Source: Solirubrobacteraceae bacterium (GTDB lineage: Bacteria > Actinomycetota > Thermoleophilia > Solirubrobacterales > Solirubrobacteraceae). From it: 64,000 nucleotides of DNA. How positions within the stretch are numbered: the first letter of the stretch is position 1; every line of letters starts with the position of its first letter. Position numbers and translations under genes: made by a program. Below the pieces are notes generated by a model. The model searched no databases. It was not told the DNA's origin and saw nothing but the letters and a program-made list of their open reading frames with translations. Shown here one piece after another: positions 12,701-51,155 of this stretch. Where the stretch lies: positions 10,644 to 74,643 of the forward strand of contig DATMLP010000009.1 in NCBI GenBank assembly GCA_035570415.1, read 5' to 3'.

Positions 12701-12703
12701 AGC

Positions 12704-14973: not shown

Positions 14974-15450
14974 ATGACAAGCGATTCCTGTGCCAGGCGC
15001 TTGAGCGCCGCTACCACGCTCGCGGCGATCCTCGCGCTGGCTGCGCTCTCAGCCGCCTACGCCGCGGACCCTCAGCCCGCTGCGCGTTCAGCGGCCACGC
15101 AGAACGTCAAAGACGAAGCGCACCTGCACCTCACCCACACCAACGGCTCGCTCCTGATCGAGGAAGGACAAGCCACCGGCCAGATCCCCGGCAAAATCAA
15201 GGCCAGCTTCGAAATCGAAGCCAACGTCACATCGAGCTTCACGATCTACGCCCGTGGCGGCTCGCTCAGCGGGCGCGGCAAAGGCCGCCTACACACGACC
15301 GGTCCCAACTCAAGCTTCGGTGGCACCCTCAAAATCACCGGCGGCACCGGCCGCTACAAGCACGCCCACGGCACCGGCGGATTCTACGGCGTCATCAACC
15401 GCAAAACTTACGCCGTAACCGTCCAAACCACCGGCCGACTCGCCGACTGA
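14974..15450 (+). CDS. Secreted hypothetical protein
   Basis: 158 aa. Signal-peptide-like N-terminus (AATTLAAILALAALSAAYAADP). Beta-rich body with no family recognised. The codon third position is GC-rich, as in neighbouring genes. Confidence 0.55.
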   Translation: MTSDSCARRLSAATTLAAILALAALSAAYAADPQPAARSAATQNVKDEAHLHLTHTNGSLLIEEGQATGQIPGKIKASFEIEANVTSSFTIYARGGSLSGRGKGRLHTTGPNSSFGGTLKITGGTGRYKHAHGTGGFYGVINRKTYAVTVQTTGRLAD

Positions 15451-15451
15451 T

Positions 15452-20100: not shown

Positions 20101-20218
20101 CGGGGTCCTTGCGGAACTCGGCGCGGAAATGGGCGTCCGCCAGCAGCCGTTCGATCAGCTGGCCGGCCTTCTGCGCGTAATCGTCAGCGGATGACACGGT
20201 TGACCTCCGTCGTCCCAT
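17135..20218 (-). CDS. Multi-domain peptidoglycan hydrolase (LAS/M15-like + CHAP + SLT-like lytic transglycosylase), no signal peptide seen
   Basis: CHAP module: GAPWCGIFVGHALEHAG...GDLVTFGGSEHVAMVV...IHTIAGNYENNVTEH. C-terminal SLT-like module: MASLVESSLHNDSFGDRDSLGYFQM. The central module with VHAQAIDIV...DAQHENRLHLAF resembles a LAS metallopeptidase (tentative). Long Ala/Pro/Gly linkers join the modules. The track start at 20659 runs out of frame over the upstream gene. I use the ATG at 20218 (MGRRRSTVSSADDYAQKAG). Confidence 0.75.
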   Translation of the reverse strand: MGRRRSTVSSADDYAQKAGQLIERLLADAHFRAEFRKDPAGACRTLGLADLATELGEGGKSMHTLEVRESKSSLAGVVMAVAAEGIGVVELHGLVEHGLLKGNLGAAGERALRGVNPLHPASSLHSELRAENPLSGASHNPVGAAERASALAHEAGQSSGSGAPGAAPGTGAPGGAAAGTAAPGGAAGTAAPAGAAPGGAASTSAAASAPGGAPGASTPGGAVAGTATPGGAEAAASPGAPASGGSIASGSGGSSWGPPPPSGAAAAANAGEAPAVGAPVTPVPAHGAPEVAPAGTPAPSQPVGGGGAPAGGGAGTPVPPPTPPAPGAQPAAGGAVPVWPEPAQTPAGGGAAAAQVADLAGQAPALPTTGTGSPGLAELLNSPHLALPPDVRTIFAQGNVDPRIVSVLDSAVAHHNIVIGDIETTTEPVHAQAIDIVSVDGQPVGPGNVAARDLITEIAALEPGVRPSEIGTPWPIQSQGFFTDAQHENRLHLAFTSVGDYQAPPAGAAPGAAAFSASPGAGAASPAISASPDGAVYATPAPAVEAFAAPQARSESGAAVALSWAHSMLHKLPESEGENVGPALNRFEGAFGFHGAPWCGIFVGHALEHAGLKVPDSIASVASILEMAKNGEGPFEKGILPIGAVRPGDLVTFGGSEHVAMVVKVDGEGIHTIAGNYENNVTEHTYSPSEVTGAVRPQYAAVLPQVQAPGGAPGGVVAAGGAPGGASSPSVVPSAASVPGAAAIPGGAPGAGAAAAGSPAPGAGAAVASGAEVPGGAQVAGVPPVQSGTGVFSAASPHVSGASLHTVKFLQAVQPSSNASPQVQAAVDQAATQPAGASTAAGAPGSGSAAEAAPGTGSAADTAPGPGGAAEAAPGTGGGADAVVGASDLASGTIPYPGDNAPKADIAQWMGDIAQKHGLPRELPVMASLVESSLHNDSFGDRDSLGYFQMRTSVWDNGQYAGYPHDPALQLKWFIDQALAVKSQMADRHFGSDPSNYGEWIDEIERPAEEYRGRYQLQLGTARELLG

Positions 20219-22181: not shown

Positions 22182-22262
22182 GGAGCAGCTCCGGGGTCAC
22201 GGTGGCACCGGGCACAGGGCGCCGGCGGTCGCCAGAGAGCCGGCGGGTGTCAGCCATGGAGC
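22143..22262 (-). repeat. Duplicated copy of the FHA-gene start region, creating a 27-codon relay uORF
   Basis: The sequence ggtggcacc.ggcac...gagagcc.gcgggtgtcagccatggagc occurs at 22143-22186 and again at 22201-22262, the second time with an 18-nt insertion. Each copy carries ATGGCTGACACCCGC. Confidence 0.8.
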
Positions 22263-36429: not shown

Positions 36430-37317
36430 TCAGCGGCGACGGCGAGCGGCCGCTTTGGCGGCGCCGAGCGCGATGTCGACGCCGGGACCAGGCACCACCA
36501 ACTCGCCGTCGGCCTCGCCGCCGTCGGCGGCGCGCGCCAAGCAGCGATAGGCGCCGGGGCCGACGCGTTCGAAGCGAAAGCGCCCGTCGGGCCCGCTCGC
36601 CGTCCACAGGCCCAGCTCCGGGATCGCCACCCACGCGTTGGCGAGCGGCTCGCCGCCGCCGTCGCGGACCGTCCCGCCGACGCGGTGCAGCTCGATCACG
36701 TTGGCGCGGGCGCCGTCTGCGTCGCGCACGCGCACCGTCTGGGTGCGCACCTCCGGCCCGCGCTCGAGCGAGGTGCCGGGCTCACAGGCAAGCGCGATCA
36801 CATAGTCGAGCGAGGCCTTGTATTGGCCGCCGATCGACGACCAGAAATCGGCCTTCCCCTCGCCCTTGGGCTGGCCGACTTTGGCGCGCAACGGATGCTG
36901 GGCGCTCGTGTCGCGCAGCGCGCCGGCGAGCACCTCCTCGGGCAGTTCGGGGTAGGCGTAGAGCACGGCGAGTACCTGCGAGAGCAGACGGTGCTCGTCC
37001 TCCACGGCGCGCGCCCAGGCGGTGAGCGCGAAGGATGCCTCGACGATCAGCGGCGGGCGGCGCTCGCGCGCGGCGCCACGGCTCTGTTCGAGCTCCCACT
37101 CGACCGGACGGTGGTCTTTGGACTCGCGCAGGTCGTAGAGGAAGGCGTTGACGGTGGGGGCGTTGAGCGTCGCCGACCACTCCTTGGCGGGTGCGTCGAA
37201 GGCGATCTCCACGCCGTCGAAACCGTGGCGCTGCAGCTCACGCTGGAGCAGCCCGCGCAGCGACTCGTCGAGGTCGGCGAGCATCGTGTTGAGGGGGACG
37301 ATTGTGGTCGTGGTCAT
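36430..37317 (-). CDS. CIS tail terminator/cap protein (DUF4255, Afp16/Pvc16-like) with a C-terminal carboxypeptidase-regulatory-like domain
   Basis: LADLDESLRGLLQRELQRHGFDGVEIAFDAPAKEWSATLNAPTVNAFLYDLRE matches the DUF4255 pattern. C-terminal GTVRDGGGEPLANAWVAIPELGLWTASGPDGRFRFERVGPGAYRC looks like a CarboxypepD_reg-like fold. Confidence 0.8.
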   Translation of the reverse strand: MTTTTIVPLNTMLADLDESLRGLLQRELQRHGFDGVEIAFDAPAKEWSATLNAPTVNAFLYDLRESKDHRPVEWELEQSRGAARERRPPLIVEASFALTAWARAVEDEHRLLSQVLAVLYAYPELPEEVLAGALRDTSAQHPLRAKVGQPKGEGKADFWSSIGGQYKASLDYVIALACEPGTSLERGPEVRTQTVRVRDADGARANVIELHRVGGTVRDGGGEPLANAWVAIPELGLWTASGPDGRFRFERVGPGAYRCLARAADGGEADGELVVPGPGVDIALGAAKAAARRRR

Positions 37318-37395
37318 GCTGGCAGTGGCGGCGCGACGGATATGCGATGAGCTGCACGGTGGACGTTAGCGCCGCGCGCCCGGCGAGGGCGTACG

Positions 37396-39513
37396 ATGGC
37401 GGTGATGGCCGAGCACGCGGTGATCGAGGAGCCCGCGGCTGCCGAGCCCGCGCAGCAGCGGCTCCCCGCCGCCGTCCCCCCGAGCCCCCTCGAGGCCCTT
37501 GGGGCGCTGCGGGCCGCCGGCAACAGCGCGATCGCCGGGCTGCTCCAGGGCGGCCTGCGCGCCCAGCTCACGCGGCAGGTGGAAGGCAACCCCGGTGCGC
37601 CGTCGGGCACCGCCAACGCGGACCCGTCGGTCGCCGACGCCGCCAACCACCAGGCGCCGGCCGCGCCGGGGGGACAGTCGGCCAACATGGCCGTGAAGGT
37701 GAAGGCGACGCCCGAGGCGCCGCTGGAAGGTGAATCGGTCTCCGAAGAAGACCTCTTCGAAAAGCAGGCGGCGCCGACGCAGGAATCGGGCTCCTCCTCC
37801 CCCAGCTCCTCCTCCGGTTCCCCTGCCCCCGAATCCTCCTCGTCCGGCTCTGCCGCCCCTGGCTCCTCCTCCGCCCCCGCACAGCAGTCCGAACAGCAGT
37901 CCTCGCCGTCTTCCTCGAGCGCGCCCGACGGCTTCACCACGGTCAAAGAAATCTCGGGCACCGCTGCCGCGCCGATCGTCGAGGAGTCGGCCGACAACTC
38001 GCTGTTCATCGACCCGGGGCCCAAGGCCGACGACGTCCAACAGGGCCAGATCGGGGATTGCTGGGACTTGGCCACGTTCATCGCGATCGTTAGCAGCGAC
38101 CCCGGCAAGATCCAATCGATGATGAGCCCGGACGGCTCGGGGGGAGCGTCGGTGACCTTCTACAGACGCCAGGCCGTGGCGGCGACCCCCGGGACGGGCG
38201 CGGGCGCAGGCGCGCCCCCGGCGGCACCGACCTACGACTACATCCCCACCGTGGTGGCGGTCAACAAAGAACTCCCGATGGACCTCGCCCAGCCAGACGT
38301 CACGCCCTCGGTGGCGTTGGCGATCCGCACGTTGATCGGCGACCAGCCCTACGGCCACTCCGTCCACGGCGCGCAGCTGCGTGCCGCCGACACACCGAAG
38401 GTGAGCAAGTGGTGGTGCATCGTCAACGGCGAAACGCTCGAGGTGCACCGGCTCGAGGTCTTCCAGATGGCACGCTGGTCGCCGCTGCTGGAGAAGGCGG
38501 GCGCGCGCTTCTCCGAGGAGTACGGCCAGTACGGGCATGGAGAAAAAACCGAACAAGCGAACAACCCAGAGGGGGAGCAACAGGACCCGAGCCAGGGCTA
38601 CGGCAACCTGGAGGGCGGCTGGCCGCGCTACACGACGACGCTGTTCTACGGCAAGGAGGGCGAGCAGGTGGCGGGCGGCCAGAGCGACACCTCCGAAACG
38701 GCTGCGCTGCCCCCGAACGCCACCTCCGAAGCGGTCCTGAACGCCAACCAGGCGTCCTTCGAACGGCTGCTGACGCTATCCGGCCAGGGCGAAGCCAACG
38801 AGCAGGGCGCCGTCCCGGACGAAGGCAAGGTGGGCGTAGTGACCGCCGACACCGCCTCGGACGTGTACTACACACGTCTGCAGGAAGCGCTCGTGGCCGC
38901 CGAAGGCGACCCCGACTGGGCCAACCTGAAGCCGCCCACCACGGCGAGCCTGGCGAAAGTCGCGAGCGCGCTCAAGGCGCTCGAAAAAGCCGAACCGGAC
39001 CCCGAACCGCTGCCCAAGCCACCGCCGCCCAATTGCAAGACCGCGCTCCAGGAAGCAGCCGCGGTGGCGGCCACGACCGCCGCCGAACCCGCCACCAACC
39101 CGACGCTGATCGACGAAAAACGCTCGAAGGCGATCAAGGACATGCTCGACCAGCTGCTGATCGTCGAGAACGAGGGCAAAGACCACGGGGCCGCAACCCA
39201 GAGCGTGTACCCCGAGCACGCCTACGCGGTGCTCGGTGTCGAAATCCTCGACACCTCCGGTAAGCCCTCCACGATCCGCGACGAACCGCCCGCCAAGCGC
39301 CAGGCGATGTTCGGAACGATTGACGTCGAAAAGTCGATGGTCAAGATGATGAACCCGCACCACGCCAACGTGCCCGACCCGACGGGCACCGTGCACGACA
39401 AAACGGGCGTGTTCCCCCTCACGCTGGACCGCTTCTTCCGGCTGTTCGCGAACGTCACCTCCTCGCAGGTGACCCCGACGAACCCGCAGTCCATACCCGA
39501 GAGCGGCGGATGA
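37396..39513 (+). CDS. Calpain-like (peptidase C2-type) cysteine protease with N-terminal GNxA motif; candidate CIS cargo
   Basis: 705 aa. Cys motif QQGQIGDCWDLATFIAI. Calpain helix motif RWSPLLEKAGARFSEEYGQYG...GYGNLEGGW. His motif VYPEHAYAVLGV. Asn motif VKMMNPHHAN. The N-terminal segment LEALGALRAAGNSAIAGLLQG is followed by a ~150-aa Ser/Pro-rich linker. Confidence 0.65.
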   Translation: MAVMAEHAVIEEPAAAEPAQQRLPAAVPPSPLEALGALRAAGNSAIAGLLQGGLRAQLTRQVEGNPGAPSGTANADPSVADAANHQAPAAPGGQSANMAVKVKATPEAPLEGESVSEEDLFEKQAAPTQESGSSSPSSSSGSPAPESSSSGSAAPGSSSAPAQQSEQQSSPSSSSAPDGFTTVKEISGTAAAPIVEESADNSLFIDPGPKADDVQQGQIGDCWDLATFIAIVSSDPGKIQSMMSPDGSGGASVTFYRRQAVAATPGTGAGAGAPPAAPTYDYIPTVVAVNKELPMDLAQPDVTPSVALAIRTLIGDQPYGHSVHGAQLRAADTPKVSKWWCIVNGETLEVHRLEVFQMARWSPLLEKAGARFSEEYGQYGHGEKTEQANNPEGEQQDPSQGYGNLEGGWPRYTTTLFYGKEGEQVAGGQSDTSETAALPPNATSEAVLNANQASFERLLTLSGQGEANEQGAVPDEGKVGVVTADTASDVYYTRLQEALVAAEGDPDWANLKPPTTASLAKVASALKALEKAEPDPEPLPKPPPPNCKTALQEAAAVAATTAAEPATNPTLIDEKRSKAIKDMLDQLLIVENEGKDHGAATQSVYPEHAYAVLGVEILDTSGKPSTIRDEPPAKRQAMFGTIDVEKSMVKMMNPHHANVPDPTGTVHDKTGVFPLTLDRFFRLFANVTSSQVTPTNPQSIPESGG

Positions 39514-40454
39514 GCGACGCGGGCACGGCTGTCACGGTGGACACCGCGCAGCGGCTGGCGGAGGTCCGCCAGCGGTACCTCGAGGCGCTGGAACGGGGGG
39601 AGGAGTCGCTGATCGTCGAGCTCGCCCCGGGCTGCCTGGGGCTCGACCGGCCCCGCGCGCTCGGCAGCTGGGAGCTCGCCCCGGTGAACGCGACCGCCCC
39701 ACCGCCGATCGACGTGACGGTGCGCTGCTCGGAGGGGCTCTGCGTGCTGGCGCAGATCCCGGTGCGGATCGCCGCGCGGCGCGTGACGCTCGAACGCGTG
39801 GCGCTCGCCGGCGCCCGCGGCACCGCGCTCGGCGTGAGCGCCGAGCGGGAGCTCACGCTGCGCGATGTCACCGTGATGGGCAGCGTCGCGAGCCCACGCG
39901 ACCGCGCGGCGCTCGCCCTCTCCGCGGCAGGGAGCGCCGGCACCCGAGCGCACCTGGAGCGCGTCGTGGTGGGGCGCAACCAGGCGCGAGACGCGGCGCT
40001 CGGGTTGTACGCCGCAGCGGGGGCCTGGCTGGAGGACCTGCGCCTGGTGGATCTCGCCGTCGCGGGCGGCCGCGCCGACGCGCTGATCGCGATCGACGCG
40101 GTCCGCCGGCTGCGCGCGCAAGGCTGCACGTTCGGAACCGGTGCGGCCCGCGTGCTGCTGCGCCTGCTGCTGGCGGCCACCGACGCGGAGTTGAGCGGCT
40201 GCGCGCTGTCGGCGGGCGCCGGCGCGCTGCTCGAGATCTCAGAGCGTCAGCCGGCGGCCGGCGCGCCGCTGCGCCTGACCGGCCACTGCGCCGTGACCGC
40301 CCCGCTCGGCGAGCTGCCCGCGGGGGTCGTGGCGGACGACACGGTCAGCGTGGTCGACCCCACGGCCGTCGAGGGCCCGCTGGAGGCGGCGCTCGACCAG
40401 GCCGCCGAGCGCCTGATCGGCGTGGATGGGCGTCTGGAGCGGCTGCTGGGGTGA
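39510..40454 (+). CDS. Hypothetical protein translationally coupled to the calpain-like gene (Ala/Leu-rich, beta-helix-like periodicity)
   Basis: 314 aa. Its ATG overlaps the calpain-like stop (ATGA). Repeated segments such as RVTLERVALAGARGTALGVSAE / RELTLRDVTVMGSVAS / AHLERVVVGRNQAR / LEDLRLVDLAVAGGRA. No family recognised. Confidence 0.5.
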   Translation: MSDAGTAVTVDTAQRLAEVRQRYLEALERGEESLIVELAPGCLGLDRPRALGSWELAPVNATAPPPIDVTVRCSEGLCVLAQIPVRIAARRVTLERVALAGARGTALGVSAERELTLRDVTVMGSVASPRDRAALALSAAGSAGTRAHLERVVVGRNQARDAALGLYAAAGAWLEDLRLVDLAVAGGRADALIAIDAVRRLRAQGCTFGTGAARVLLRLLLAATDAELSGCALSAGAGALLEISERQPAAGAPLRLTGHCAVTAPLGELPAGVVADDTVSVVDPTAVEGPLEAALDQAAERLIGVDGRLERLLG

Positions 40455-40497
40455 GTCAGTCGGGCGCTGGCATGAGCCATCCGGGCGCTGGGGTGAG

Positions 40498-41682
40498 TCA
40501 GTCGACAAGGAGCATGATGCGCTGCCACTTCGGGGGGAGTTGCGCGACTTCGGCCTCGATGATCGACATCCAGTCCATCATCGAGGCGCCGACCGTCTGC
40601 TGCTTCTTTTCGTCTTCGTGTTCGGGGATGAACTTGGGTTCGCGGAAGGAGATCAGCGAGCCGTCGGTTTCGGCCACGCCGAGGCGCCCGCCGGGCTGGC
40701 CGGGGGGCCCCCACAGACCGATGTCGACCATGTGTTTGCACAGCACCTCCTCGGTGCCGATGGCGTTCCGTGCGGAGAAGTGGGCGATCCAGATGTCCTG
40801 CTCGGTCTCGCGCCAGCTCGGCACGGTCACCTTGCGCCGCTCGCGCAGCTGGCGCAGCTCGGTGAGCAGGTCTTCGGCGCCGGCGAGGATCTCGTTGCCG
40901 GCGGCTTCCGCGGCGTCCAGCGCGGCCTGTTCGTCGGCGTCGAGCGCGCCGGAGTTGGGGGCGTTGGAGCCGATCGAGGTCGCGACGTCGACGGCCTTGT
41001 CGAGCACCATGTCACCCTGGTTGTGCACGTCGGCGACCTTGAACAGCAGCTCGTTGACGTGCTCGAGACTGTAGATCCGCAGCTCGTTGGGGTCCGCCAT
41101 CGCGGCCTCGCCGAGCTCTGTGTGCTCCTCGCCGCCCTCAAACGCTTTGAGGATCTTGCCGCTCTTCTCGATCTTCTCGCGCGCCTCGTCGAGCTCGTGG
41201 GCTTTCTCAACGATCTTCGCGAGCACGCTCACGGCCTCCTCCTCGGGGGCGGCGAACGCAAGCGCGAGGCTCGCGGCGGCGATCAGCGCCTCGGCGATCT
41301 CCTCGTTGTGGACGTCCTCCTCGTGCGCCTGGCCGACGACCACCTGGTGGATCTTGAAGCACTCGGCGTAGATCCCGTTGACGTAGTTGTAGTGGTCCTG
41401 AGTGCCCTTCATGATCTCGTTGGCCTCGCGCATGCGTTCGTGGAAGGTGGCCTGCATGCCCTTCACGCGCGCGGGGACCGCGGATGCGGCGCTCGGCGTG
41501 GGCAGACGCGGACCGCCCTCTTCGCGCTGGAGCATGCGCGTGACGGCGTCGTTGCCGGCGGTGCGCTGCAGCGTACCGAGGTCGATCGACCCCGACGCGG
41601 TCGACCCTCCGGAGCCGCGGGAGCCGCGCGTGACGGCGGGGGTGCGCGCGGCCCGGCGGGTGCTCAACAGTCTCCCCTTCAT
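40498..41682 (-). CDS. Hypothetical helical protein with N-terminal GNxA motif; candidate CIS cargo
   Basis: 394 aa. N-terminal LGTLQRTAGNDAVTRMLQREEG. The rest is Glu/Lys/His/Ile-rich and predicted helical. It appears less GC-rich by eye than its neighbours. No family recognised. Confidence 0.55.
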   Translation of the reverse strand: MKGRLLSTRRAARTPAVTRGSRGSGGSTASGSIDLGTLQRTAGNDAVTRMLQREEGGPRLPTPSAASAVPARVKGMQATFHERMREANEIMKGTQDHYNYVNGIYAECFKIHQVVVGQAHEEDVHNEEIAEALIAAASLALAFAAPEEEAVSVLAKIVEKAHELDEAREKIEKSGKILKAFEGGEEHTELGEAAMADPNELRIYSLEHVNELLFKVADVHNQGDMVLDKAVDVATSIGSNAPNSGALDADEQAALDAAEAAGNEILAGAEDLLTELRQLRERRKVTVPSWRETEQDIWIAHFSARNAIGTEEVLCKHMVDIGLWGPPGQPGGRLGVAETDGSLISFREPKFIPEHEDEKKQQTVGASMMDWMSIIEAEVAQLPPKWQRIMLLVD

Positions 41683-41728: not shown

Positions 41729-43357
41729 TCACTGCTGTCCCCCTCCCGAGCCGGACCCGGCGCCGGCGGCGGCCTGGCGGATCACCGGTTCCCACCAGGG
41801 GTCGTCGGCGGGGTTGCAGATGAATTTGTCGACCAGGCTGGTGACCGCTTCCTGCTGGGGCGTGCCCTGCCCGCCCGGGCCGGCGGCGGGCTGTTCGGAT
41901 TGCGGCGCCTGTCCTTCGGCCGGCGTGGCCGGCGCCGCGGGAGCGGCTTCTTTGGATTCCTTGGGCATGGTTGACCACACTTCTTTGATCTTCGTACCGA
42001 TTTCCTTGTCGGCGAACACGGCGAGCGCACGGGAGACGGCGAACAGCGGGTTGTCGGGGGAGTCCTTGGCGATTTCGGAGTGGGTCGGCCCGGAGAGTTC
42101 TTTGCTCTGCGCCTGGGTCCCCGATTGGGTGGTGGCGGCGTCGGTGATGGGGCCGGTGAGGCTCGCGAGCGAGGGGACGGTGAAGCCGAACGCCTTCATC
42201 ACGACGTCCTCGCCGAACAGACTGCAGGCAAGGTCGACAAGCTGCATGAGATCGTTCACCGCGGCGGTGGCGAGCTTGGCGGCAAAGCCGGCGCCGGAGA
42301 GCGCTTCTTTGGCCTTCGCCAGCGTGGTGCCGTTGGCGCGCAGCGAACCCTTGATGAAGGTGCGGCGCAGTTCGCCGCTCGTCAGCTCGGTCTCCAGCGC
42401 CTCCACCATGCTCACGAAGTTGTTGGCGCCGGGCGCGTAGGTGCCGGTCTGGATCTGCATCCGCCCGCCGGGGGCCGGTTCGCTGGTTTCGACGCCCGGC
42501 GGGGGCCCGCTCCCGTCCTGCGTCGGCGTGAGCGACCCAGGGGTGTGGCCGAGCGTGGTCTTTTGCAGCTGGTCCAGCAGCGGCTTGATCGAGGGGTCGT
42601 CTTTGAGCGTGACGATGCAGACCTCGGTGAAGTTGGAGTGGGAGAAGTAGTCCTCGACCGCGTGCAGGCCGTTGCCGAGCGCCTGCATCCCTTCCGGCGT
42701 TTCGCCCTTTTCGACAGCCTGCCCGAGCATTTCCCGGGCGTGCATCTTGCCCTGCTCGATGTAGGGGGGCAGGCCGCTCTTGGCCGACGCCGCGAGAATT
42801 TCCAGGCCGGCGGCGCGCTGGCGTTCATAGGCCGCCTGCTGCTCGGGCGAGAGCTTGGCGAGCGCTTCTTCGGTTCCCCCGATGGCGCCCGGCGCGGGAT
42901 CGAGCTTCGGATCCTCGGCGGTGCCGCCGCCTTCGGGGTTGTCGAGGTGCTCGGAGGGCGCGTAGCCGCCGAGATCGGCGTCGGTGAGTTCGCGCCCGAA
43001 CTCACCGAGGGCGAGAATGTTCAGCAGCAGCATCAGCGCGGGTGGGCGCTTCCCAGCTTCCCCCATCTGCGAGAAGTCCCGCAGCCAGTTGCCGAAGTAG
43101 GTCGATTTCACCTGTTCGGGGGTGAACCCGGCTTCGCCGAGCCCCTGCTGCTCGATCCCGCCGTGCCCCGCCTCGCCCTGCTGGTAGCGGGCGAGCGCGG
43201 AGCGCCGGGGAGGCGCGGCATGCGAGCGCAGATGGCGAGCGAACGCCCGGTTTCCCACATGGCTGGGCAGTCCGATCGCGGGCATCTTGGTCACCGCCGG
43301 CGCGGGGGCGACCTCGCGGGCGGGGCTCTCGGTCTCGATCGTCTGGCTCTCTCTCAC
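41729..43357 (-). CDS. HET-C-like domain protein (phospholipase C / P1 nuclease-fold, tentative) with N-terminal GNxA motif; candidate CIS effector
   Basis: 542 aa. GTG start overlaps the ATPase stop (GTGA). N-terminal LPSHVGNRAFARHLRS. Motifs STYFGNWLRDFSQ and GNGLHAVEDYFSHSNFTE match my memory of the Het-C domain. Confidence 0.55.
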   Translation of the reverse strand: MRESQTIETESPAREVAPAPAVTKMPAIGLPSHVGNRAFARHLRSHAAPPRRSALARYQQGEAGHGGIEQQGLGEAGFTPEQVKSTYFGNWLRDFSQMGEAGKRPPALMLLLNILALGEFGRELTDADLGGYAPSEHLDNPEGGGTAEDPKLDPAPGAIGGTEEALAKLSPEQQAAYERQRAAGLEILAASAKSGLPPYIEQGKMHAREMLGQAVEKGETPEGMQALGNGLHAVEDYFSHSNFTEVCIVTLKDDPSIKPLLDQLQKTTLGHTPGSLTPTQDGSGPPPGVETSEPAPGGRMQIQTGTYAPGANNFVSMVEALETELTSGELRRTFIKGSLRANGTTLAKAKEALSGAGFAAKLATAAVNDLMQLVDLACSLFGEDVVMKAFGFTVPSLASLTGPITDAATTQSGTQAQSKELSGPTHSEIAKDSPDNPLFAVSRALAVFADKEIGTKIKEVWSTMPKESKEAAPAAPATPAEGQAPQSEQPAAGPGGQGTPQQEAVTSLVDKFICNPADDPWWEPVIRQAAAGAGSGSGGGQQ

Positions 43358-45333
43358 GACACACCCTCGCGCACCTGGATGGCGGCATGGAAGCGCTCGA
43401 AGTCGCTCTCCAGCGTGAGCCGCCCGAGCTTGCCGTACTCGACCGCGACGGCGCGCACGAGGTGCTCCATCGTGATCGTGCCGCCATCGTCGGCGGCGAG
43501 GAAAGCGGCGGCGAGCGAGCAGTTGCGGATGCCCCCGCCGGAGAGCTTGAACTGGTTGGCGAGGAACTCGAGGTCGAGATCCTCCGCGAGCGGTGCGGTG
43601 GCGGGCAGCAAGAGGCGCCAGATGCGCACGCGGTCCTCGGGCTCGGGGAACGGGAAGTCGATCACGAAGTCCAGGCGACGCAGAAAGGCGTCGTCGATGT
43701 TGCGGCGGAAGTTGGTGGCTAGCACCACGGCGCCGGGGTAGGACTCCATCTTCTGCAGCAGGTAGGCGACCTCGATGTTGGCGTAACGGTCATGCGCGTC
43801 GGAGACCTCCGAGCGCTTGCCGAACAGCGCGTCGGCCTCGTCGAAGAAGAGGATCGCGTTGGAGCCCTCGGCGGCGGTGAAGATGCGGTCGAGGTTCTTC
43901 TCGGTCTCACCGATGTACTTGGATACGACGGTGGCCAGATCGAGGCGGAACAGCTCCAGGCCGAGCCCGTGCGCGAGCACCTGCGCGGCCATCGTCTTGC
44001 CGGTGCCCGACTCCCCGGCGAACAGCACCTTCAGCCCCTGTGTGCGCGCCACGGCGCGCTCGTAGCCCCACTCGGAGAGCACCAGGTCGCGGTGGCGCAG
44101 GTAGGCGGAGATCGAGCGCAGCAGCTCCAGCTGCCGTGGCGGCAGCACGAGGTCATCCCAGGTGAAGCCGGGCGGCAGCCGCGTGGCCAGTTCGCCGAGG
44201 CGGGTGCTGGAGGCCTGGCGGGCGCCGGCGTGCAGGTCCTCGCTCTCGATTCGCGCGGCCGCGCGGGCGGTGGCGTTCAGCCGCGCGACCTCGCAGGCGG
44301 TGGCGATCTGAGCCGCGCTGAGGCGGAACTTGGCGGCAACCTCATGCACCTCGTGCGCACTTCCGAAGGCCCGCCAGAGCGCGATGCGCTCGGCGAAGCC
44401 GGGCATCGCCGTCTCCACCACCATCACCGTCTGCTCGTCGAGGTGCAGCGCCGCATCGCGCGTGGGAGCGCAGATCAGGGGACGCTCGCCCCACGCATCC
44501 AGCGCACGGGCGACGCGCGCGCAGTCGGCTGGGCCGAGCTGCTCCAGGCGATCCAAGCACAGCCGCCGCCCCTCCAGGCGGGCGGCAAGCGTGGCGTCGG
44601 CGATCGCCTCCGGGGCGGCGAGCGCCTCGACGTCGAGCAACAGCAGCCCCCGCTCCAGCGCGGCGGCCAAGAGCAGCGGCGCGTCGGGCCCGGCGACCAG
44701 CAACGCCAGGCGGCTGTCGGCGGCGAGCAGGCTGCGCAGCTCCTCGATCGCGACGGCGTGGGAGCCGGCGGCGACCGCCGCCGCGACTGCCCCATCGAGG
44801 TCGACGCGCCGCACGCGCCCATCGCTGGCTGGCATGTCCAGACGCGCCCCGAGCAGCTGCGCGGCGAGCCGGTCGGGCACCTTCACCAGGCGGTCGGCCA
44901 GCGGCCCCGGGGCATCCCCGTCGAGCAGCCGGATCGCGCCGGCGCGACGCAGCGGAGCGTCGTGGGCGAAGCACGCGAGGATCTCATCGCGGGGCCGGCG
45001 CTCGTCGGCCAGCAGCCGCGCCACCAGTCGCGGGGAGGCGAGCTTGCGGGTGACGTCGTCGTGCAGGTAGGCAAGCAGCCGCCCATAGCGCGGGCTGAGC
45101 TCGGGGGCGGCGCATAGCGCGAGCACCTCGCGGTCGAGCTCGCCGAGCGCGAGCGCCTGCGCGGCGGTCCCGATGCGCGCGTCGAGGTCCTCGATCGGCG
45201 TGGCGTGGGCGAGCGAGCGAGCGAGATCGTCGGAGATGTAGAGGCCGCGGAACGGGTCGGCGGGGTTGGGGTCGGTAGCGGCGATCGCGTCGACCGCCGT
45301 GCGGATGCGGGCGTCGATCTCATCGAAGCGCAT
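43354..45333 (-). CDS. CIS-associated AAA+ ATPase (Afp15-like)
   Basis: 659 aa. Walker A GESGTGKTMAA, Walker B ILFFDEADALFGKR, and YIGETEKNL typical of classic AAA. A long N-terminal non-ATPase region, as in eCIS ATPases. Confidence 0.85.
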   Translation of the reverse strand: MRFDEIDARIRTAVDAIAATDPNPADPFRGLYISDDLARSLAHATPIEDLDARIGTAAQALALGELDREVLALCAAPELSPRYGRLLAYLHDDVTRKLASPRLVARLLADERRPRDEILACFAHDAPLRRAGAIRLLDGDAPGPLADRLVKVPDRLAAQLLGARLDMPASDGRVRRVDLDGAVAAAVAAGSHAVAIEELRSLLAADSRLALLVAGPDAPLLLAAALERGLLLLDVEALAAPEAIADATLAARLEGRRLCLDRLEQLGPADCARVARALDAWGERPLICAPTRDAALHLDEQTVMVVETAMPGFAERIALWRAFGSAHEVHEVAAKFRLSAAQIATACEVARLNATARAAARIESEDLHAGARQASSTRLGELATRLPPGFTWDDLVLPPRQLELLRSISAYLRHRDLVLSEWGYERAVARTQGLKVLFAGESGTGKTMAAQVLAHGLGLELFRLDLATVVSKYIGETEKNLDRIFTAAEGSNAILFFDEADALFGKRSEVSDAHDRYANIEVAYLLQKMESYPGAVVLATNFRRNIDDAFLRRLDFVIDFPFPEPEDRVRIWRLLLPATAPLAEDLDLEFLANQFKLSGGGIRNCSLAAAFLAADDGGTITMEHLVRAVAVEYGKLGRLTLESDFERFHAAIQVREGVS

Positions 45334-45345
45334 CTGCGCCCCTCG

Positions 45346-45915
45346 TCAGCCCGTCAGCTCGTCGGCGACGGTCTCGGCCTCGGTCTCCTGCGCGTCGCCA
45401 GGCTCGGAGACGGTGAGCGGCCCGCTGGTGGGGGCGCCGCGCTGCTGCACCACGTGGGTGAGCTCGTGCGCGAGCAGCCGGTCGCCCTCGCCGCTGCCGG
45501 GGCGGTACTCGCCAGTGGCGAAGAACACGTCGCTGCCAGTGGTGAAGGCGCGCGCGGAGACCGAGCGGGCGAGCGCGTCGGCGCCAGCGTCGGTGTGCAC
45601 CCGCACGTCGGCCAGCGGATCGCCGAGCTGCCCGGCGAAGCGCTCGCGCGAGCGCCCGTCGAGCGCACCGCCGCCGCCGCGCCTGCGGGCGATCGTGGCC
45701 TGCACCTCCGGGTGGACGGTGCCGTCAGTCAGGATGCCCGTGCCCTCACGGGAGATCAGCCCGCCGAACGCCCGGTTGCCGACCTCGGAGGCCAGGCGCT
45801 CGCGAGGATCGGGCTCGGGAGCCTCGCGCTGAGACTCCGGCGCGGCCGGCGCGAAGATGCTCTCGGCTTCGCCTTCGCGCTCGACATCCCCCTGGCGATG
45901 GTCGCTCACCGCCAA
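45346..45915 (-). CDS. DUF4157 (zincin HExxH) domain protein, eCIS-associated type
   Basis: 189 aa. LDGRSRERFAGQLGDPLADVRVHTDAGADALARSVSARAFTTGSDVFFATGEY...LLAHELTHVVQQ is the DUF4157 pattern. N-terminal RLASEVGNRAFGGLIS motif. Confidence 0.85.
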   Translation of the reverse strand: MAVSDHRQGDVEREGEAESIFAPAAPESQREAPEPDPRERLASEVGNRAFGGLISREGTGILTDGTVHPEVQATIARRRGGGGALDGRSRERFAGQLGDPLADVRVHTDAGADALARSVSARAFTTGSDVFFATGEYRPGSGEGDRLLAHELTHVVQQRGAPTSGPLTVSEPGDAQETEAETVADELTG

Positions 45916-45966: not shown

Positions 45967-47907
45967 TCAGCAGCCCTTCCCCGGGTGGGTCGAGCCCGGC
46001 GCCAGGCAGGCGATGGTGACGCTCGGCGAGCGGCCCGAGCGCGTGGTGAACTCGAACGAGCGCCCGACCCAGCCCTTCTTCAGCACCTCCACCGTGATCC
46101 GGGCGCCGACCTGCAGGTGGCGACCCTTGAAGAGACCGGCGAGACCGAAGTTCGGCCCCTGGGGCGGCGAGTGGTGCGGCTTGGTGGAGCACTTCTTGTG
46201 CCTGCGGCAATGCTTGCTGGCGTGAGAGTGTTTGACGCTCCCCACGGTCGGCGAGCGGTTGTGGGCGAACGGGCAGCCCTTCCCCTTGCAGGCGACTTCG
46301 ACATACCCTCCCTTGGGCACGCCGTGCACGGTCAGCGACTCGACCAGCGTGTACTTGCGCGTCCAGCCGAACGTCCACGTCATCGTCGCTTCCACCCCCG
46401 GGCGGGAGGGTGCGGGCGCCGGCGAAGGGACGGAGGGCGGCGGGGTGCTGCTCGCCGCCGGCGCCGCGCTGACGGCCACGCCGGTGCTGGTGGCCGACAC
46501 GGTGACGTTCAGCAGCGGGTAGGTGGCTGTCACACTGCAACTCAACTGGTGGCCGATCTCTTCGGCGGTGGGCACGTAGGCCTGGCTGGTGGCGCCGGCG
46601 ATCGCGCGGCCGTCGAGCAGCCACCGGTAGCCGTCGAAACCGAACATGCTCGTTGAGGGCGGCAACGACGCCCACGATGACCAGCTCGCTCCCGCGCACT
46701 GCAGCTGGCTCCCTACCTGCCCTGCACCCGTGACCGCGGGCGCCGTCTGCGAGGCGGGCGCCACGTCCAGGCCGATCCGGCCGACCGCCGGCGTGGTGCC
46801 GGAGTCGGTGAACCACATGTTGCCGTCTGGGCCCGGCGCGATCGCCTCGGGGCTGCTGCTCGCATGCAGTCCGGCGCTGTATTCCTTGATCGTGACCACT
46901 CCGTTGGGGTCGACCATGCCGACAACCGGGGGAAGACTCGGTTCGGCGCCAATACCAGTGAACCAGAGGTTGCCGTCAGGTCCCGCAGCGATGTCGTTCG
47001 GCGTGCTGCTTGGCGTGATGAAGGTCGTGAACGTGCCGCCCGGCGTGAGCCTCACCACCTCGTTGATGAATTCCTCGCCTTCGTTCTCGCCCGTGCCGGT
47101 AAACCAGAGGTTGCCTTCCGGGCCCCTCGTGATGTCTTCCGGGCGCAGATACACCTGGGGAATCCCGAGCTCCTTGATTTCGCCGCTCGGCGTAACCCGT
47201 CCGATCGCGTTGACTTCACCAGCGTCGGTGAACCACATATCGCCTTCGGGGCCTTCGGCGATCGCCTTCGGCACGCTGCCGGAGTTGAAGCCGGCGGTGA
47301 ACAGTGTGATTTCGCCGCCGGGCGTGATCCTGCCGATCGCGGGTGTTTTGCCCTCCTCGGTGAACCAGAGGTCGCCGTGGGGGCCGAGCGCCAGGCCGGC
47401 GGGGGCGCCGGAGCCGATCCCGGAGCGAAATTCGGTGATTTCGCCGTTCTGGGTAATGCGCCCGATCGCCGGGCTTGGGCCGCCGCTGATGAACCACATG
47501 TCGCCTTCCGCGCCCGCCACGATGTTGATCGGCTGATTGGTTGTGCCCGTGGCGTATTCGCTGAGCACCTGCCCGCCCGGGGAGAGCTTCACGATCTCGC
47601 CGCTGGAGCCCGTCTCGGTGAACCAGAGGTTGCCGTCGGGGCCCGCAGCGATGTCTTCCACGAACACTCCCGGCGAGCGGTCGATCTCTTCGATCTTGCC
47701 GAGCGGCGTTGCGAGCGCGGGCACAGCGCACAGCGCCAGCGCCGCGGCGACCCCGGCGAGGGTCGATGCGAACGCTCCACACCGGGTGAGCGATCCAGGC
47801 CGGACCAACGCTCCATGCCGGGCGAGCACTCCACGCCCAGGCGGGCCGGCGGCGCGGCGGCTCATCGCTCTTGCGGGTGGAAGACCACGCGCGGATGCTA
47901 GCGCCAC
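45967..47907 (-). CDS. Secreted beta-propeller protein with streptogramin-lyase (Vgb)-like repeats, an Ig-like unit and a Cys/His-rich C-terminal module
   Basis: About ten GP(D/E)GN(L/M)WFT(E/D) repeats. An Ig-like unit (VTGAGQVGSQLQCAGASW...YRWLLDGRAIAGATSQAY). C-terminal TMTWTFGWTRKYT...CKGKGCPFAH...CRRHKKC...CLAPGSTHPGKGC. The N-terminal signal-like region is preceded by an Arg-rich stretch, so the start may be internal. Confidence 0.75.
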   Translation of the reverse strand: MALASARGLPPARAMSRRAAGPPGRGVLARHGALVRPGSLTRCGAFASTLAGVAAALALCAVPALATPLGKIEEIDRSPGVFVEDIAAGPDGNLWFTETGSSGEIVKLSPGGQVLSEYATGTTNQPINIVAGAEGDMWFISGGPSPAIGRITQNGEITEFRSGIGSGAPAGLALGPHGDLWFTEEGKTPAIGRITPGGEITLFTAGFNSGSVPKAIAEGPEGDMWFTDAGEVNAIGRVTPSGEIKELGIPQVYLRPEDITRGPEGNLWFTGTGENEGEEFINEVVRLTPGGTFTTFITPSSTPNDIAAGPDGNLWFTGIGAEPSLPPVVGMVDPNGVVTIKEYSAGLHASSSPEAIAPGPDGNMWFTDSGTTPAVGRIGLDVAPASQTAPAVTGAGQVGSQLQCAGASWSSWASLPPSTSMFGFDGYRWLLDGRAIAGATSQAYVPTAEEIGHQLSCSVTATYPLLNVTVSATSTGVAVSAAPAASSTPPPSVPSPAPAPSRPGVEATMTWTFGWTRKYTLVESLTVHGVPKGGYVEVACKGKGCPFAHNRSPTVGSVKHSHASKHCRRHKKCSTKPHHSPPQGPNFGLAGLFKGRHLQVGARITVEVLKKGWVGRSFEFTTRSGRSPSVTIACLAPGSTHPGKGC

Positions 47908-48414: not shown

Positions 48415-50247
48415 TCAGCAACCCTTCCCTGGCTGATGGGAGCCGGGGGCTAGACATGATACCCGCACGCTCGGGGTCTTATCGGAGCGCGTGGTGAACA
48501 CGAACGACTTCCCCACCCAGCCCGTTTTGACGATGCTGACGGAGATCGTGTCCCCCGTGCGCAGATGGCTGTGCTTGAAGAGCGGCGTGAGGTTGACTTC
48601 GGGCCCCTGAGGTCGGGGCTTGGCAGCCTTGCACTTCTTGTGGGGGCGGCACGTCTTGTGAGACCGGTGGCGAGCCACCGTCGCGGAGCGGTAATGCCCA
48701 AGCGGGCACCCGTGCCCCTCACAGACGACTTCCACACGCCCCCCCTTGGGCACTGCGTGCACGATCAGCGACTGCACGACCGTGTACTTGCGCGTCCAGC
48801 CGAACGTCCAGGTCATCGACGCTTCGACACGCGACAGCGGCGGGGGTGGCGGGGGCGGGGTCGCCACGACCGCCGACGGGTTGGAGACTTCCGAGGCGAA
48901 GCCGGCAACGTTCGTGGCGGTGACGACGACGCGCAGCGTGTGGCCCACGTCGCCCGCTCCCAGAGGGTGGGCGACGCCCGTTTCGCCGCTGAGATTGGAG
49001 CAGCTGCCGCCCGCGGCGTCGCAGGATTGCCACTGGTAGGCGAAAGTCCCGGGGCTGTTCGTCCACGAGCCCGGCGAGGCGGTCAGCACCTGGCCCTCGG
49101 TCGGCGTGCCGGAGATTGTCGGGGGTGCGATAACCGCCGGAAGATAGGGAGTCGTGAGCCGCCCGATGTGGTAGAAGGGCCCCGGGGTCGGGCTCACTTC
49201 CGTGGCACGGCCATCCATGAACCAGATGTTGCCATCCGAGCCCCGGGCGATCGCCGTCGGTTCGCTCTCGGGGGTCGATATCGGGAACGACTTCACTTCT
49301 TTCCCAGACGGGCCGATGCGGCCAATCGCATCGATTGTCGCCTGGCCGAACCACATGTTGCCATCCGGACCTTCGACGATCCCGTCGGGGGAGTAGTTGG
49401 TGCTCGTCGCCGGGAACTCTTTGATTTCGCCATTTGAGGCGATCTCTCCGATCTGGCTGGCGCCAGACTCGACAAACCACATGTTGCCGTTCGGCCCCGG
49501 GGCGATTGCGGTGGGGTAGCTGTTCTTGGTTGGGATCAAAAAGTGTTCGTATTTTTCCGTCGAGGCGTTGATCCGACCGATGTAGGCTTCGTTTTCGTCT
49601 CGTTCGGTAAACCACATGTAGCCGCCGGGCCCCTGGGCGATCCCACCGATATCGGGGAAGAACCCATGCGCGCCGAGAGCGGCGACGAGATGGAGTTCGC
49701 CATTTGGCTTGATCCGCCAGATCTTGTCTTCACTACCGAACTGGGCGGTGGCGAACCACATGTTGCCTTCAGGGCCCGCCGCGATCGCGCCAAGCTGATT
49801 TTCTTTGGCGCCGTCGGGAAACTCCTTGATCTGCGGTTCGCCTTTCCCCAAGGTGACCTGCCCGATGAGTTGTTCCTCGTTGCTGTTGTCACCGAGGTCG
49901 GTGAACCACAGCGTGTCGTTAGGACCAGGGGCCATCTGATAGGGGTCGCTGTGTTCGGGATGTTCTGTGCTGCCGGGCGCCGTCGGGACGGCGTATTCGT
50001 GGATCTGGCCATCCAGGTTGACCAGGCCGACCTTGCCGACCTCCGTTCCGCCGGAGTCGGTGTCAACCGTGAACCAGATGTTGCCGTCGGGACCCTCCAC
50101 AAACCCGGAGTTGGGGAACTCTTCCGTGCTGGGGAACGGGAATTCTTCGACCCCTCCGGGTGGCGCGAGCGCCGCCGAGGGCGCGGCGAACACGAAGCCG
50201 CCGACCAGCATCAGGGCGCCGATCAGTGCCGTCAGGCTTTGTTTCAT
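48415..50247 (-). CDS. Secreted Vgb-like beta-propeller protein, tandem paralogue of 45967..47907
   Basis: Same repeat type (GPDGNIWFT, GPEGNMWFA, GPGGYMWFTE, GPNGNMWFVE, GPDGNMWFGQ, GSDGNIWFMD). Ig-like unit (GSWTNSPGTFAYQWQSCDAAGGSC). Same C-terminal module ending CLAPGSHQPGKGC. I use the ATG at 50247 (MKQSLTALIGALMLVGGFVFAAPSAALA signal peptide) rather than the track start at 50364. Confidence 0.8.
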   Translation of the reverse strand: MKQSLTALIGALMLVGGFVFAAPSAALAPPGGVEEFPFPSTEEFPNSGFVEGPDGNIWFTVDTDSGGTEVGKVGLVNLDGQIHEYAVPTAPGSTEHPEHSDPYQMAPGPNDTLWFTDLGDNSNEEQLIGQVTLGKGEPQIKEFPDGAKENQLGAIAAGPEGNMWFATAQFGSEDKIWRIKPNGELHLVAALGAHGFFPDIGGIAQGPGGYMWFTERDENEAYIGRINASTEKYEHFLIPTKNSYPTAIAPGPNGNMWFVESGASQIGEIASNGEIKEFPATSTNYSPDGIVEGPDGNMWFGQATIDAIGRIGPSGKEVKSFPISTPESEPTAIARGSDGNIWFMDGRATEVSPTPGPFYHIGRLTTPYLPAVIAPPTISGTPTEGQVLTASPGSWTNSPGTFAYQWQSCDAAGGSCSNLSGETGVAHPLGAGDVGHTLRVVVTATNVAGFASEVSNPSAVVATPPPPPPPLSRVEASMTWTFGWTRKYTVVQSLIVHAVPKGGRVEVVCEGHGCPLGHYRSATVARHRSHKTCRPHKKCKAAKPRPQGPEVNLTPLFKHSHLRTGDTISVSIVKTGWVGKSFVFTTRSDKTPSVRVSCLAPGSHQPGKGC

Positions 50248-50417
50248 CGGGTGGGCCAACTGGTCGTCTCCCGGGTAGGATGGCTGTCGGGCGGCCCCAA
50301 AGATACCATTGAGCGAGACTTCCGATCGCTCGCCGGCGACCTGCACCAGGGGAACCGGCGGCATCGCCTGCCCGCCTGGCGCTCAACCCCGCGTCCGACC
50401 CGCCGATCACCAGGCCG

Positions 50418-51155
50418 ATGTCGGTGGAATCCGTCCTCGCGCGCGTGGTCGCGATCGAACAGGCCATCGCCAACCCCGCCGCGCTGATCGGGGCAAACGC
50501 GACGGGCACCGGTGGGACCGCGGCGCCTGTGGCCTCCGAACCGACGCAGGCCGCCGGCGGCGCCTCCTTCGCACAGGCGTTGCAGAGCGCAAGCGCAAGC
50601 CAAGCGAGCACGCCGAGCGCGAGCGCGAGCCAGGCGAGCACGGCGACGCCGATCGCTTCCACCGGTGCGATGGCGTCCACCGGCGAAGTCACGCCGAGCA
50701 TCGCTCCCACCGGCTCGCCGGGCCAGCAGATCGTGAAAATCGCCGAAAGTCAGCTCGGCCAGGCCGAGGAACCGCTTGGCTCCAACGAATCGCCGGCGAT
50801 CGCGATGTACCGCACGGCGACCGCCGGCGCGATCCCGGGGGCGCCGTGGTGCGCATACTTCGCCTCGTGGGCGGCACGCCAGGCGGGCGAGCCGCTGGGC
50901 GCCCACGGGGAAGGGCTGGGCGCCGTGTCGCAGATCTGGGAATGGGCGCAGAGCACCGGCCGCGCGATCCCCAACGGGCCGGGCGTCACGCCGCAGCCGG
51001 GCGATTTGATCGTGTTCGGCGACCAACACGTGGGGATTGTCAGGGACGTGCTCCCCAACGGCGACATCCAGACGATCGAGGGCAACTACGAAAACAAGGT
51101 GTCAGCCAACGTGCGTACGCCGACGGAAGCCACGGGTTATGTGAACATGAACTGA
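50418..51155 (+). CDS. CHAP-domain peptidoglycan hydrolase
   Basis: 245 aa. GAPWCAYFASWAARQAG...GDLIVFGDQHVGIVRDV...IQTIEGNYENKVSAN is a Cys-His CHAP signature and resembles the CHAP module of 17135..20218. The N-terminal half is low complexity. Confidence 0.8.
   Translation: MSVESVLARVVAIEQAIANPAALIGANATGTGGTAAPVASEPTQAAGGASFAQALQSASASQASTPSASASQASTATPIASTGAMASTGEVTPSIAPTGSPGQQIVKIAESQLGQAEEPLGSNESPAIAMYRTATAGAIPGAPWCAYFASWAARQAGEPLGAHGEGLGAVSQIWEWAQSTGRAIPNGPGVTPQPGDLIVFGDQHVGIVRDVLPNGDIQTIEGNYENKVSANVRTPTEATGYVNMN

Follow-up and report, generated by a model that had tools for sequence, protein, structure and literature searches.

Bacterial calpain homologues of the C2 family were surveyed by Rawlings 2015 (PMC4631099), where 67 of them were found to have a patchy distribution, a variable architecture and none of the calcium-binding domains of the eukaryotic enzymes; Ca2+ sites are generally absent from them as well, and some are fused to WXG100 and regarded as toxins of the type VII secretion system (PMC4631099). 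Among the toxins of extracellular contractile injection systems (eCIS), the papain-fold heads Tox-TGase, Tox-NlpC/P60, Tox-PLC39 and Tox-UCH were described for the PVC-type toxins (Zhang 2012, PMC3482391), which also include Tox-HET-C (PMC3482391), and EAT14, a DUF4157 protein with a transglutaminase-like papain fold, is an experimentally validated eCIS toxin (Danov 2024, PMC11297309). The effectors Sco4256-4258 of S. coelicolor are encoded in the injection-system cluster, share similar N-termini and fill the lumen of the tube (Casu 2023, PMC10066040). In AlgoCIS, the cargo consists of a system-specific disordered N-terminal loading sequence, an optional DUF4157 and a variable C-terminal domain, and its loading is AAA-dependent, with the loading role of Alg15 demonstrated (bioRxiv 10.64898/2026.05.27.728243). 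The present analysis concerns a gene for a calpain-like cysteine protease located beside a contractile-injection-system cluster in a stretch of 64,000 nucleotides from a Solirubrobacteraceae bacterium (GCA_035570415.1, contig DATMLP010000009.1, positions 10,644 to 74,643), hereafter the window, together with the 314-aa partner gene that directly follows it.

The cargo of an injection system largely decides the function of the system, and most cargo is uncharacterised. Here, a protein deposited as hypothetical becomes a testable effector candidate, with a predicted catalytic tetrad (Q216, C222, H608, N653), a leader tag and a candidate cognate inhibitor.

Calpain Identity of the Protease

All the landmark calpain (C2) motifs that the earlier note had read from the translation were found, and in the order given there: QGQIGDCW (aa 216-223), ARWSPLLEKAGA (aa 359-370) for the W..LLEKA.A helix motif, EHAYAVLGV (aa 607-615) and MNPHH (aa 652-656). 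They are no chance matches, because the protein is matched by Pfam, because the profile of its family retrieves only calpains from the PDB, and because Q216, C222, W361, H608 and N653 are invariant. The search with the Peptidase_C2 hidden Markov model (HMM; PF00648), which the note had proposed as a check, was positive at 33.6 bits, above the gathering cut-off of 23.8 (E 2.8e-8), and the same domain is matched in 72 of the 75 family members examined with Pfam. Across these 75 diverse homologues, the residues Q216, G220, D221, C222, W361, H608, Y610, N653 and P654 do not vary; the oxyanion Gln216 stands six residues before Cys222, and the pair aligns to QGxLGDCW of calpain.

The matches to calpain structures were marginal when the single protease sequence was searched against the PDB (E 0.15 or worse), and the profile of the 75-member family found there 19 sequences, from E 8e-14 (best 7.9e-14) to 2e-7, all of them calpains. 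The alignment between the profile and calpain consists of three collinear blocks, namely QGxxGDC, the W..LLEKAYA helix, and the strand and helix of RNPxx...dGxF..L..F, where the Asn block of the family is aligned to LRNPWGE of calpain. The His block was not aligned to calpain by HMMER; it resembles the calpain GHAYSV motif on motif comparison.

The AlphaFold2 model of aa 175-705, built with the alignment of 75 homologues, has a mean predicted local distance difference test score (pLDDT) of 89.9 and a predicted template modelling score (pTM) of 0.90. Cys222 is the first residue of a helix in this model, His608 starts a strand, and Asn653 ends the next strand. The structure prediction, likewise proposed in advance as a check, yielded a two-lobe calpain-like fold, and the sole Foldseek matches in the PDB at E <0.01 were three calpain-1 protease cores, each with a Foldseek probability of 1.00. 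An earlier AlphaFold model, of the full-length protein with 11 homologues, had a pLDDT of 59 and no Foldseek match at E <1, and was discarded for its low confidence.

The assignment of the protease as a calpain (C2) homologue is solid. Judged from the alignment and the model, Gln216 and Cys222/His608/Asn653 would be the oxyanion Gln and the triad of a papain-fold cysteine protease. That the domain is instead a dead calpain-like scaffold, or an enzyme engaged in transglutamination or acting as a peptidoglycan amidase, is highly improbable. In the protease, His takes the place of the Trp in the calpain motif NPWG (NPHH), a few family members carry LysM, OmpA or PG_binding_1 modules that hint at a cell-wall substrate, and the validated toxin EAT14 has a transglutaminase-like variant of the papain fold (PMC11297309), all of which could be taken in this sense; however, a dead enzyme hardly agrees with an oxyanion Gln and a Cys/His/Asn triad that are invariant in 75 sequences, and a non-proteolytic one hardly agrees with the Pfam search at E up to 1, where C2 was the sole family of the CA clan.

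Domain Organization and Insertions

The large insertion that had been noticed between the Cys and His regions is real and resolves into two. From the catalytic Cys to the His there are 386 aa in the protease and 157 aa in human calpain-1; from the His to the Asn there are 45 aa in the protease. The first insertion is beta-rich and lies in the Cys lobe, where 139 aa separate the Cys from Trp361 and the interval from one aligned block to the next measures 93 positions in the profile and 61 residues in calpain. The second one, a helical bundle of ~140 aa, falls in an interval where the profile has 209 positions and calpain has 69 residues. Family-wide, the Cys and the Asn are 330-515 aa apart, and the enlargement is, therefore, a trait of the family.

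Ahead of the protease domain, the earlier note had placed a Ser/Pro linker of 150 aa. A Ser/Pro stretch indeed exists, 50 aa long with 24 Ser and 7 Pro (62% Ser+Pro), and is found just in the closest relatives and in protein P0012; however, the length was overstated, because only aa 127-176 are Ser/Pro-rich, while aa 64-126 form a conserved and partly structured extension. G64, P77, D81, A82 and P109 of this extension are invariant in alignment A2, its beta strands at aa 93-123 have a pLDDT of 75-87 in the full-length AlphaFold model, and P0011, a relative fused to DUF4157, has it as well. The consensus GNPxD...GTxHAAPTIADAANH...VKxxAT...DLYE precedes the protease domain in all relatives, the DUF4157-fused ones included, with its strands predicted at moderate confidence. 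The extension could be a pro-segment or a processing site.

Leader Motif and Position in the Injection-System Locus

A complete contractile-injection-system cluster was identified on the minus strand of the window. From left to right, it comprises an FHA/M50-like membrane protein, a PASTA protein, Tail_P2_I, baseplate J, gp25, VgrG, a LysM-tube protein, a tube protein, a probable tape-measure protein of 803 aa, a tail assembly chaperone, a second tube protein, the sheath and the Pvc16 cap. Then the accessory region follows, with the protease and the 314-aa partner genes on the plus strand and the genes of a 394-aa protein, a Het-C protein, an AAA ATPase and a small eCIS_core/DUF4157 protein on the minus strand. 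The protease gene is thus located between the cap gene and the AAA gene, the latter being four genes away.

The GNxA leader described earlier for the N-terminus of the protease is there (GNSAIAGLL), within a region that is predicted to be disordered, with a pLDDT <30 over aa 1-79 of the full-length AlphaFold model. When the pattern GN.A[FIVLA]..[LIVMH][LIVM] was searched in the six-frame translation of the whole window (128,000 residues), five matches were obtained, one elsewhere and four at aa 34-46 of genes of the accessory region, which encode the protease, the 394-aa protein, the Het-C protein and the small DUF4157 protein. Among the family representatives with a complete N-terminus, 21 of 99 have the motif and 30 of 99 have an upstream HExxH/DUF4157, and the motif is absent from the 50,300 aa of the protease parts of family representatives. 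The LQxxxGNxA form is also found upstream of DUF4157 in Gram-negative relatives. The literature search for spellings of the motif returned unrelated papers only, mostly on the GNXAS software.

By analogy with AlgoCIS, the placement of the motif matches the published disordered loading sequence that is common to the cargo of one system and recognised by the AAA+ ATPase, and the ATPase of this locus would be the cargo loader, as Alg15 is in AlgoCIS. The placement also agrees with the resemblance among the N-termini of Sco4256-4258 in Streptomyces (PMC10066040). Since four proteins carry the GNxA motif at aa 34-46, the locus may load up to four cargo proteins via one common tag, and a leader motif so short and conserved could be of use as a tag for loading actinobacterial systems. 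No family match was found for the 394-aa protein. In a related locus (L003), a Fic-domain gene and a 71-aa gene (1970-2685) are located between the cap and calpain-like genes, and the 394-aa gene is absent; the cap-to-AAA region is, for this reason, regarded as a variable cargo cassette.

The proposal that the calpain-like protease is an effector of the injection system gains support in silico from its position between the cap and AAA genes, from the leader common to three other proteins of the region, from the fusion to eCIS_core/DUF4157 in 14 of the 75 family members (Pfam), and from homologues beside a cap gene in three other loci; as read from these sequences, its role as injection-system cargo is well supported. 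The gene adjoins the structural operon, papain-like peptidases can be releasing peptidases in polymorphic toxin systems (Zhang, PMC3482391), and the nearby leader-bearing proteins are possible substrates, so that the protease might also be a maturation enzyme of the system, trimming leaders, DUF4157 heads or the tape-measure protein, with the partner as its regulator or substrate. This is distinctly unlikely, as the protease bears the leader itself, its relatives are fused downstream of DUF4157, in the toxin-head position, and homologues with both leader and partner are encoded far from any injection-system gene; in addition, no such protease was reported for the Streptomyces systems (PMC10066040, PMC10020575), and it is, therefore, not a core component.

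Distribution of the Family

By the exhaustive profile search of 1.84 billion representative proteins, the family was found to include at least 185 clusters (50% identity) at E <1e-30 and 3013 at E <1e-3; it spans Actinomycetota, Myxococcota and Pseudomonadota. With a family of this size in three phyla, a result obtained on one member would annotate many. The neighbourhoods of the relatives were read from 20-kb loci. The survey of calpain-like genes beside injection-system loci, suggested in the earlier note, showed homologues adjoining the cap gene: they occupy the same position in two loci of Solirubrobacterales type (L001, L003) and are near the cap gene in L065. Other homologues have no injection-system gene anywhere near them. 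One of two eCIS-type heads, the leader or HExxH/DUF4157, is present in half of the family, which indicates a toxin head of calpain type in recombination with the two standard targeting heads of eCIS.

The orphan loci might be taken to mean that the protease and its partner are an autonomous module, be it a toxin-antitoxin pair or a housekeeping protease plus regulator, which is not delivered by an injection system; the pair does occur in loci without injection-system genes within 10 kb (L002/L007, L008-L010, L014). However, every actinobacterial orphan copy of the protease keeps the LQxxxGNxA leader, which is otherwise found on the accessory-region proteins and upstream of DUF4157, the eCIS-type heads are carried by as much as half of the family, and no match was found in PADLOC. 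The autonomous module is considered very unlikely.

The Coupled Partner Gene

The earlier note overlooked the 314-aa gene downstream, which is translationally coupled to the protease gene and gives the best hint of how the protease is handled and of what its targets are. Homologues of this partner directly follow the protease gene in at least 15 loci of Actinomycetota, Myxococcota and Pseudomonadota; the pairing is kept in actinobacterial loci inside and outside the injection-system clusters, and was also detected (HMM, transitive BLAST) in Kofleriaceae, in other Myxococcota/Deltaproteobacteria, and in metagenome-assembled genomes (MAGs) of Rickettsiales and Enterobacterales. The identities to the window copies fall in step for the two proteins, being, for the partner and the protease, respectively, 78% vs 85%, 45% vs 46%, and 40% vs 41%. 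The profile search for the partner in a set of 5.8 billion proteins added three further sequences only, none with a Pfam domain. The protein has neither a leader nor a transmembrane segment, and a beta-helix is suspected from its repeat pattern.

Five diderm homologues of the partner (L013, L015, L019, L021, L022) have a strongly hydrophobic N-terminus, followed by a Cys in four of them, and in L013 and L019 the start codon of the partner overlaps the stop codon of the protease. In a metagenomic contig (L062), the DUF4157-fused calpain-like gene is followed by tandem partner paralogues (2648-3652 and 3649-4776), the first of which is cytoplasmic, while the second is extended at the N-terminus by a segment with Cys residues and a hydrophobic stretch, export-like but less hydrophobic than in the five diderm homologues.

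The partner is, on the evidence of these sequences, most likely an immunity or inhibitor protein of the protease. If it is an immunity protein, the protease would be harmful to bacterial cells, and bacteria would be the likely targets. A conserved partner is unusual for PVC-type toxins and argues for bacterial over eukaryotic targets, which bears on the purpose of the actinobacterial injection systems.

Alternatively, the protease would still be cargo, with a target that is possibly eukaryotic, and the partner would be a loading chaperone or adaptor, which keeps the protease soluble or unfolded for the AAA ATPase. The actinobacterial partner is cytoplasmic and leaderless, translational coupling suits a chaperone as well as an inhibitor, PVC-type toxins usually have no immunity genes (PMC3482391), and chaperone-like helpers were proposed for eCIS toxins (Danov 2024, PMC11297309). 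However, the hydrophobic N-termini and the Cys of the diderm partners (L013 and L019, at the overlapping starts, and more weakly the second copy of L062) imply export, and this is incompatible with a part in loading within the cytoplasm; in addition, the locus with two tandem partners has the N-terminal extension in one only. Exported partners, as in the diderm lineages, hardly agree with a chaperone that loads in the cytoplasm and fit an immunity protein or inhibitor; the chaperone is rather unlikely.

Proposed Function

Starting from the observed homology, fold, invariant catalytic residues, locus position, common motif and conserved gene pair, it is considered probable that the protease is leader-tagged cargo loaded by the AAA+ ATPase, that the partner is its immunity or inhibitor protein, and that the targets are bacterial. 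The protease would be a soluble cytoplasmic protein with a cargo-like build, composed of a leader of ~58 aa, an extension of ~60 aa, a Ser-rich linker of ~50 aa and a calpain-type domain of 520 aa, with the leader carrying the system-specific recognition motif [L]Q...GNxA[VI]..LL. The AAA+ ATPase would recognise the leader and feed the protease into the lumen of the tube, along with the 394-aa, Het-C and small DUF4157 proteins; the contraction of the sheath would release the protease into the target compartment, where it would cleave the proteins present. The co-translated partner would stay in the producer, because it has no leader, and would bind and inhibit the protease there. The targets may be kin or competitor bacteria, or the producer itself if the system is cytoplasmic like the Streptomyces systems.

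Several points weigh against this reading. The Pfam alignment spans the Cys block alone (profile positions 36-78, 43/297), and the Foldseek TM-scores are modest, 0.48-0.53 on the calpain length, at a root-mean-square deviation of ~10 Å, which is attributed to the insertions in the protease. The protease itself has no DUF4157, and the nearest DUF4157 gene is five genes off, not within two. The partner is without a recognisable fold or family, no match having been found in Pfam, NCBIfam, PADLOC, PHROGs or, by profile search, the PDB; its export signals were called from naive starts of the open reading frames (ORFs) and a hydropathy scan, all the actinobacterial (monoderm) partners are cytoplasmic, which suits an inhibitor and a chaperone equally, and an immunity partner would be atypical, adjacent immunity genes being usually absent for PVC-type toxins (PMC3482391). 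What we infer is that the protease is loaded and delivered, that it is active and is inhibited by the partner, and which target it has.

A different use of the same pair may also be imagined, in which the protease and the partner form a prokaryotic death module analogous in function to calpain and calpastatin, with the protease as executioner and the partner as safety catch, fired by a cytoplasmic membrane-anchored system into the producer or into hyphal or kin neighbours, in line with the regulated cell death proposed for the Streptomyces systems; we regard this as improbable.

Genomic Surroundings

The positions of the features are collected in Table 1. The protease ORF starts with ATG, with a GAGGG box 6 nt upstream, and its third-position GC content (GC3) is 0.88, which is coding-like and typical for the genes of the window; the DNA is that of a high-GC actinobacterial genome, a Solirubrobacteraceae MAG (Actinomycetota, Thermoleophilia), and the databases already contain, under a Solirubrobacteraceae MAG, an identical protein of 702 aa annotated as hypothetical. 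The gene was ruled out as a pseudogene by the intact ORF and the GC3 value; a defence-system protease and a phage protein were also considered and rejected, with no match in PADLOC and in PHROGs, respectively. The divergent gap of 78 bp to the cap gene, as first described, is borne out by the coordinates and by the Pfam match of Pvc16_N. The scan of this gap for a sigma-70 consensus found none, and none was expected, such a scan being uninformative at 70% GC.

Table 1. Features of the protease gene and of its neighbours, in positions of the window.
Feature	Position	Strand	Basis
Cap / tail terminator gene (Pvc16_N), first of the structural operon	36430..37317	-	Pfam Pvc16_N, E 1e-32
Divergent intergenic region, 78 bp, between the cap (Pvc16) and protease starts	37318..37395	.	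ORF coordinates, GAGGG box
Gene of the calpain-like cysteine protease (Peptidase C2; 705 aa), putative cargo of the injection system	37396..39513	+	
N-terminal leader, aa 1-58, predicted disordered; GNSAIAGLL at aa 42-50 (nt 37519-37545)	37396..37569	+	pLDDT <30, motif search
Protease module, conserved N-terminal extension (aa 64-126)	37585..37773	+	Invariant residues, beta strands
Ser/Pro-rich low-complexity linker, aa 127-176	37774..37923	+	Composition
Calpain-type two-lobe protease domain, aa 180-697	37933..39486	+	AlphaFold, Foldseek, invariant residues
Codon of Gln216	38041-38043	+	
Codon of Cys222	38059-38061	+	
Beta-rich insertion in the Cys lobe, ~aa 243-356	38122..38463	+	Model strands, domain positions 69-182
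Helical-bundle insertion, ~aa 444-591, after the LLEKA helix region and before the catalytic His	38725..39168	+	Model helices, domain positions 270-417
Codon of His608	39217-39219	+	
Codon of Asn653	39352-39354	+	
Translationally coupled partner gene, 314 aa, putative cognate inhibitor/immunity protein	39510..40454	+	ATGA overlap with the protease stop
Second cargo candidate, a 394-aa protein; same motif at its N-terminus (LQRTAGNDAVTRMLQ)	40498..41682	-	Motif search
Het-C domain protein, leader variant HVGNRAFARHL, third cargo candidate	41729..43357	-	Pfam Het-C, E 2e-21
AAA+ ATPase (Afp15/Pvc15/Alg15-like), presumed cargo loader	43354..45333	-	Pfam AAA and WHD
Small eCIS_core (DUF4157) protein, leader variant EVGNRAFGGLI	45346..45915	-	Pfam eCIS_core, E 3e-29

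At the other end of the cluster, in the tail-fibre position after Tail_P2_I, an 881-aa protein is encoded (22250-24895, minus strand), which consists of an N-terminal part of 340 aa, one transmembrane segment (aa 341-371), three PASTA domains and PD40/TolB-like repeats, and the next gene (20184-22181, minus strand) encodes an FHA and M50-like multi-pass membrane metalloprotease. The transmembrane PASTA protein and the FHA/M50-like metalloprotease, similar in concept to the transmembrane putative fibre and CisA proteins of Streptomyces, suggest that the system may be membrane-anchored and peptidoglycan-sensing, not a free extracellular particle.

The locus is flanked by two paralogous Vgb-lyase-like beta-propeller proteins (secreted; 45967-47907 and 48415-50364, both on the minus strand), which have N-terminal signal anchors and a common Cys-rich C-terminal region and are conserved in loci L001 and L003; a CHAP-domain gene (50418-51155, plus strand) comes after them. 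In the gap of the convergent partner and 394-aa genes, an 18-nt perfect direct repeat, GCTGGGGTGAGTCAGTCG, is found at 40445-40462 and 40487-40504, with a spacing of 42 nt, each copy covering the stop codon of one of the genes. The GC content is 0.60-0.67 over positions 1-16000 of the window, vs 0.69-0.76 across most of the remainder, and the lower-GC first 16 kb may be a different genomic segment or acquired DNA.

Comparison with Known Systems

In the earlier note, the calpain-type domain was offered as a possible new class of payload, which is not the case, because Peptidase_C2 is already listed in the supplements of two eCIS works: it is present in 2 eCIS operon genes, under the label "Eukaryotic domain" (Geller 2021 Supplementary Data), and a DUF4157+Peptidase_C2 protein is among the machine-predicted toxins of Danov 2024 (supplementary table). 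The entries are neither discussed nor tested in these works, and in the library of papers searched, "contractile injection system" and "calpain" occur together only in a review of bacterial toxins as tools. The locus reveals no new kind of system, and its domain class is already catalogued computationally.

The protease shares with the calpain-1 core (PDB 7w7o, 1kxr, 1tlo) the QGxxGDCW motif with the Gln six residues before the Cys, W..LLEKAYA, HAY(S/A)V, (R/M)NPxx, the dGxF..L..F strand and helix after the Asn motif, and the two-lobe fold; it differs from this core by the longer Cys-to-His distance (386 vs 157 aa) and by NPHH in place of NPWG, and from calpain-1 by the lack of C2-like and penta-EF-hand domains and by the presence of an injection-system leader. 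The bacterial calpains of Rawlings are likewise C2 homologues, some of which are fused to targeting modules of secretion systems; however, that survey includes no forms linked to injection systems or DUF4157, no large-insertion subfamily and no conserved partner, and the targeting here is by GNxA or DUF4157, not by WXG100. The eCIS papain-fold toxins are built in the same way, with a disordered signal at the N-terminus, DUF4157 as an option, then a linker, and an enzymatic head at the C-terminus, and are encoded beside an AAA ATPase, inside the injection-system operon or close to it, whereas the head here is calpain-type (unnamed in Zhang 2012), DUF4157 is absent, and a conserved partner is encoded downstream. 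As to Sco4256-4258, these also belong to an actinobacterial injection system with several cluster-encoded proteins of similar N-terminus; in contrast, they have a transmembrane segment, ricin-type or other C-terminal domains and no protease domain, while the protease here lacks such a segment and is paired with a dedicated partner. What the analysis adds to the known systems is the conserved partner, the two-insertion subfamily, the common leader motif and the breadth of the family.

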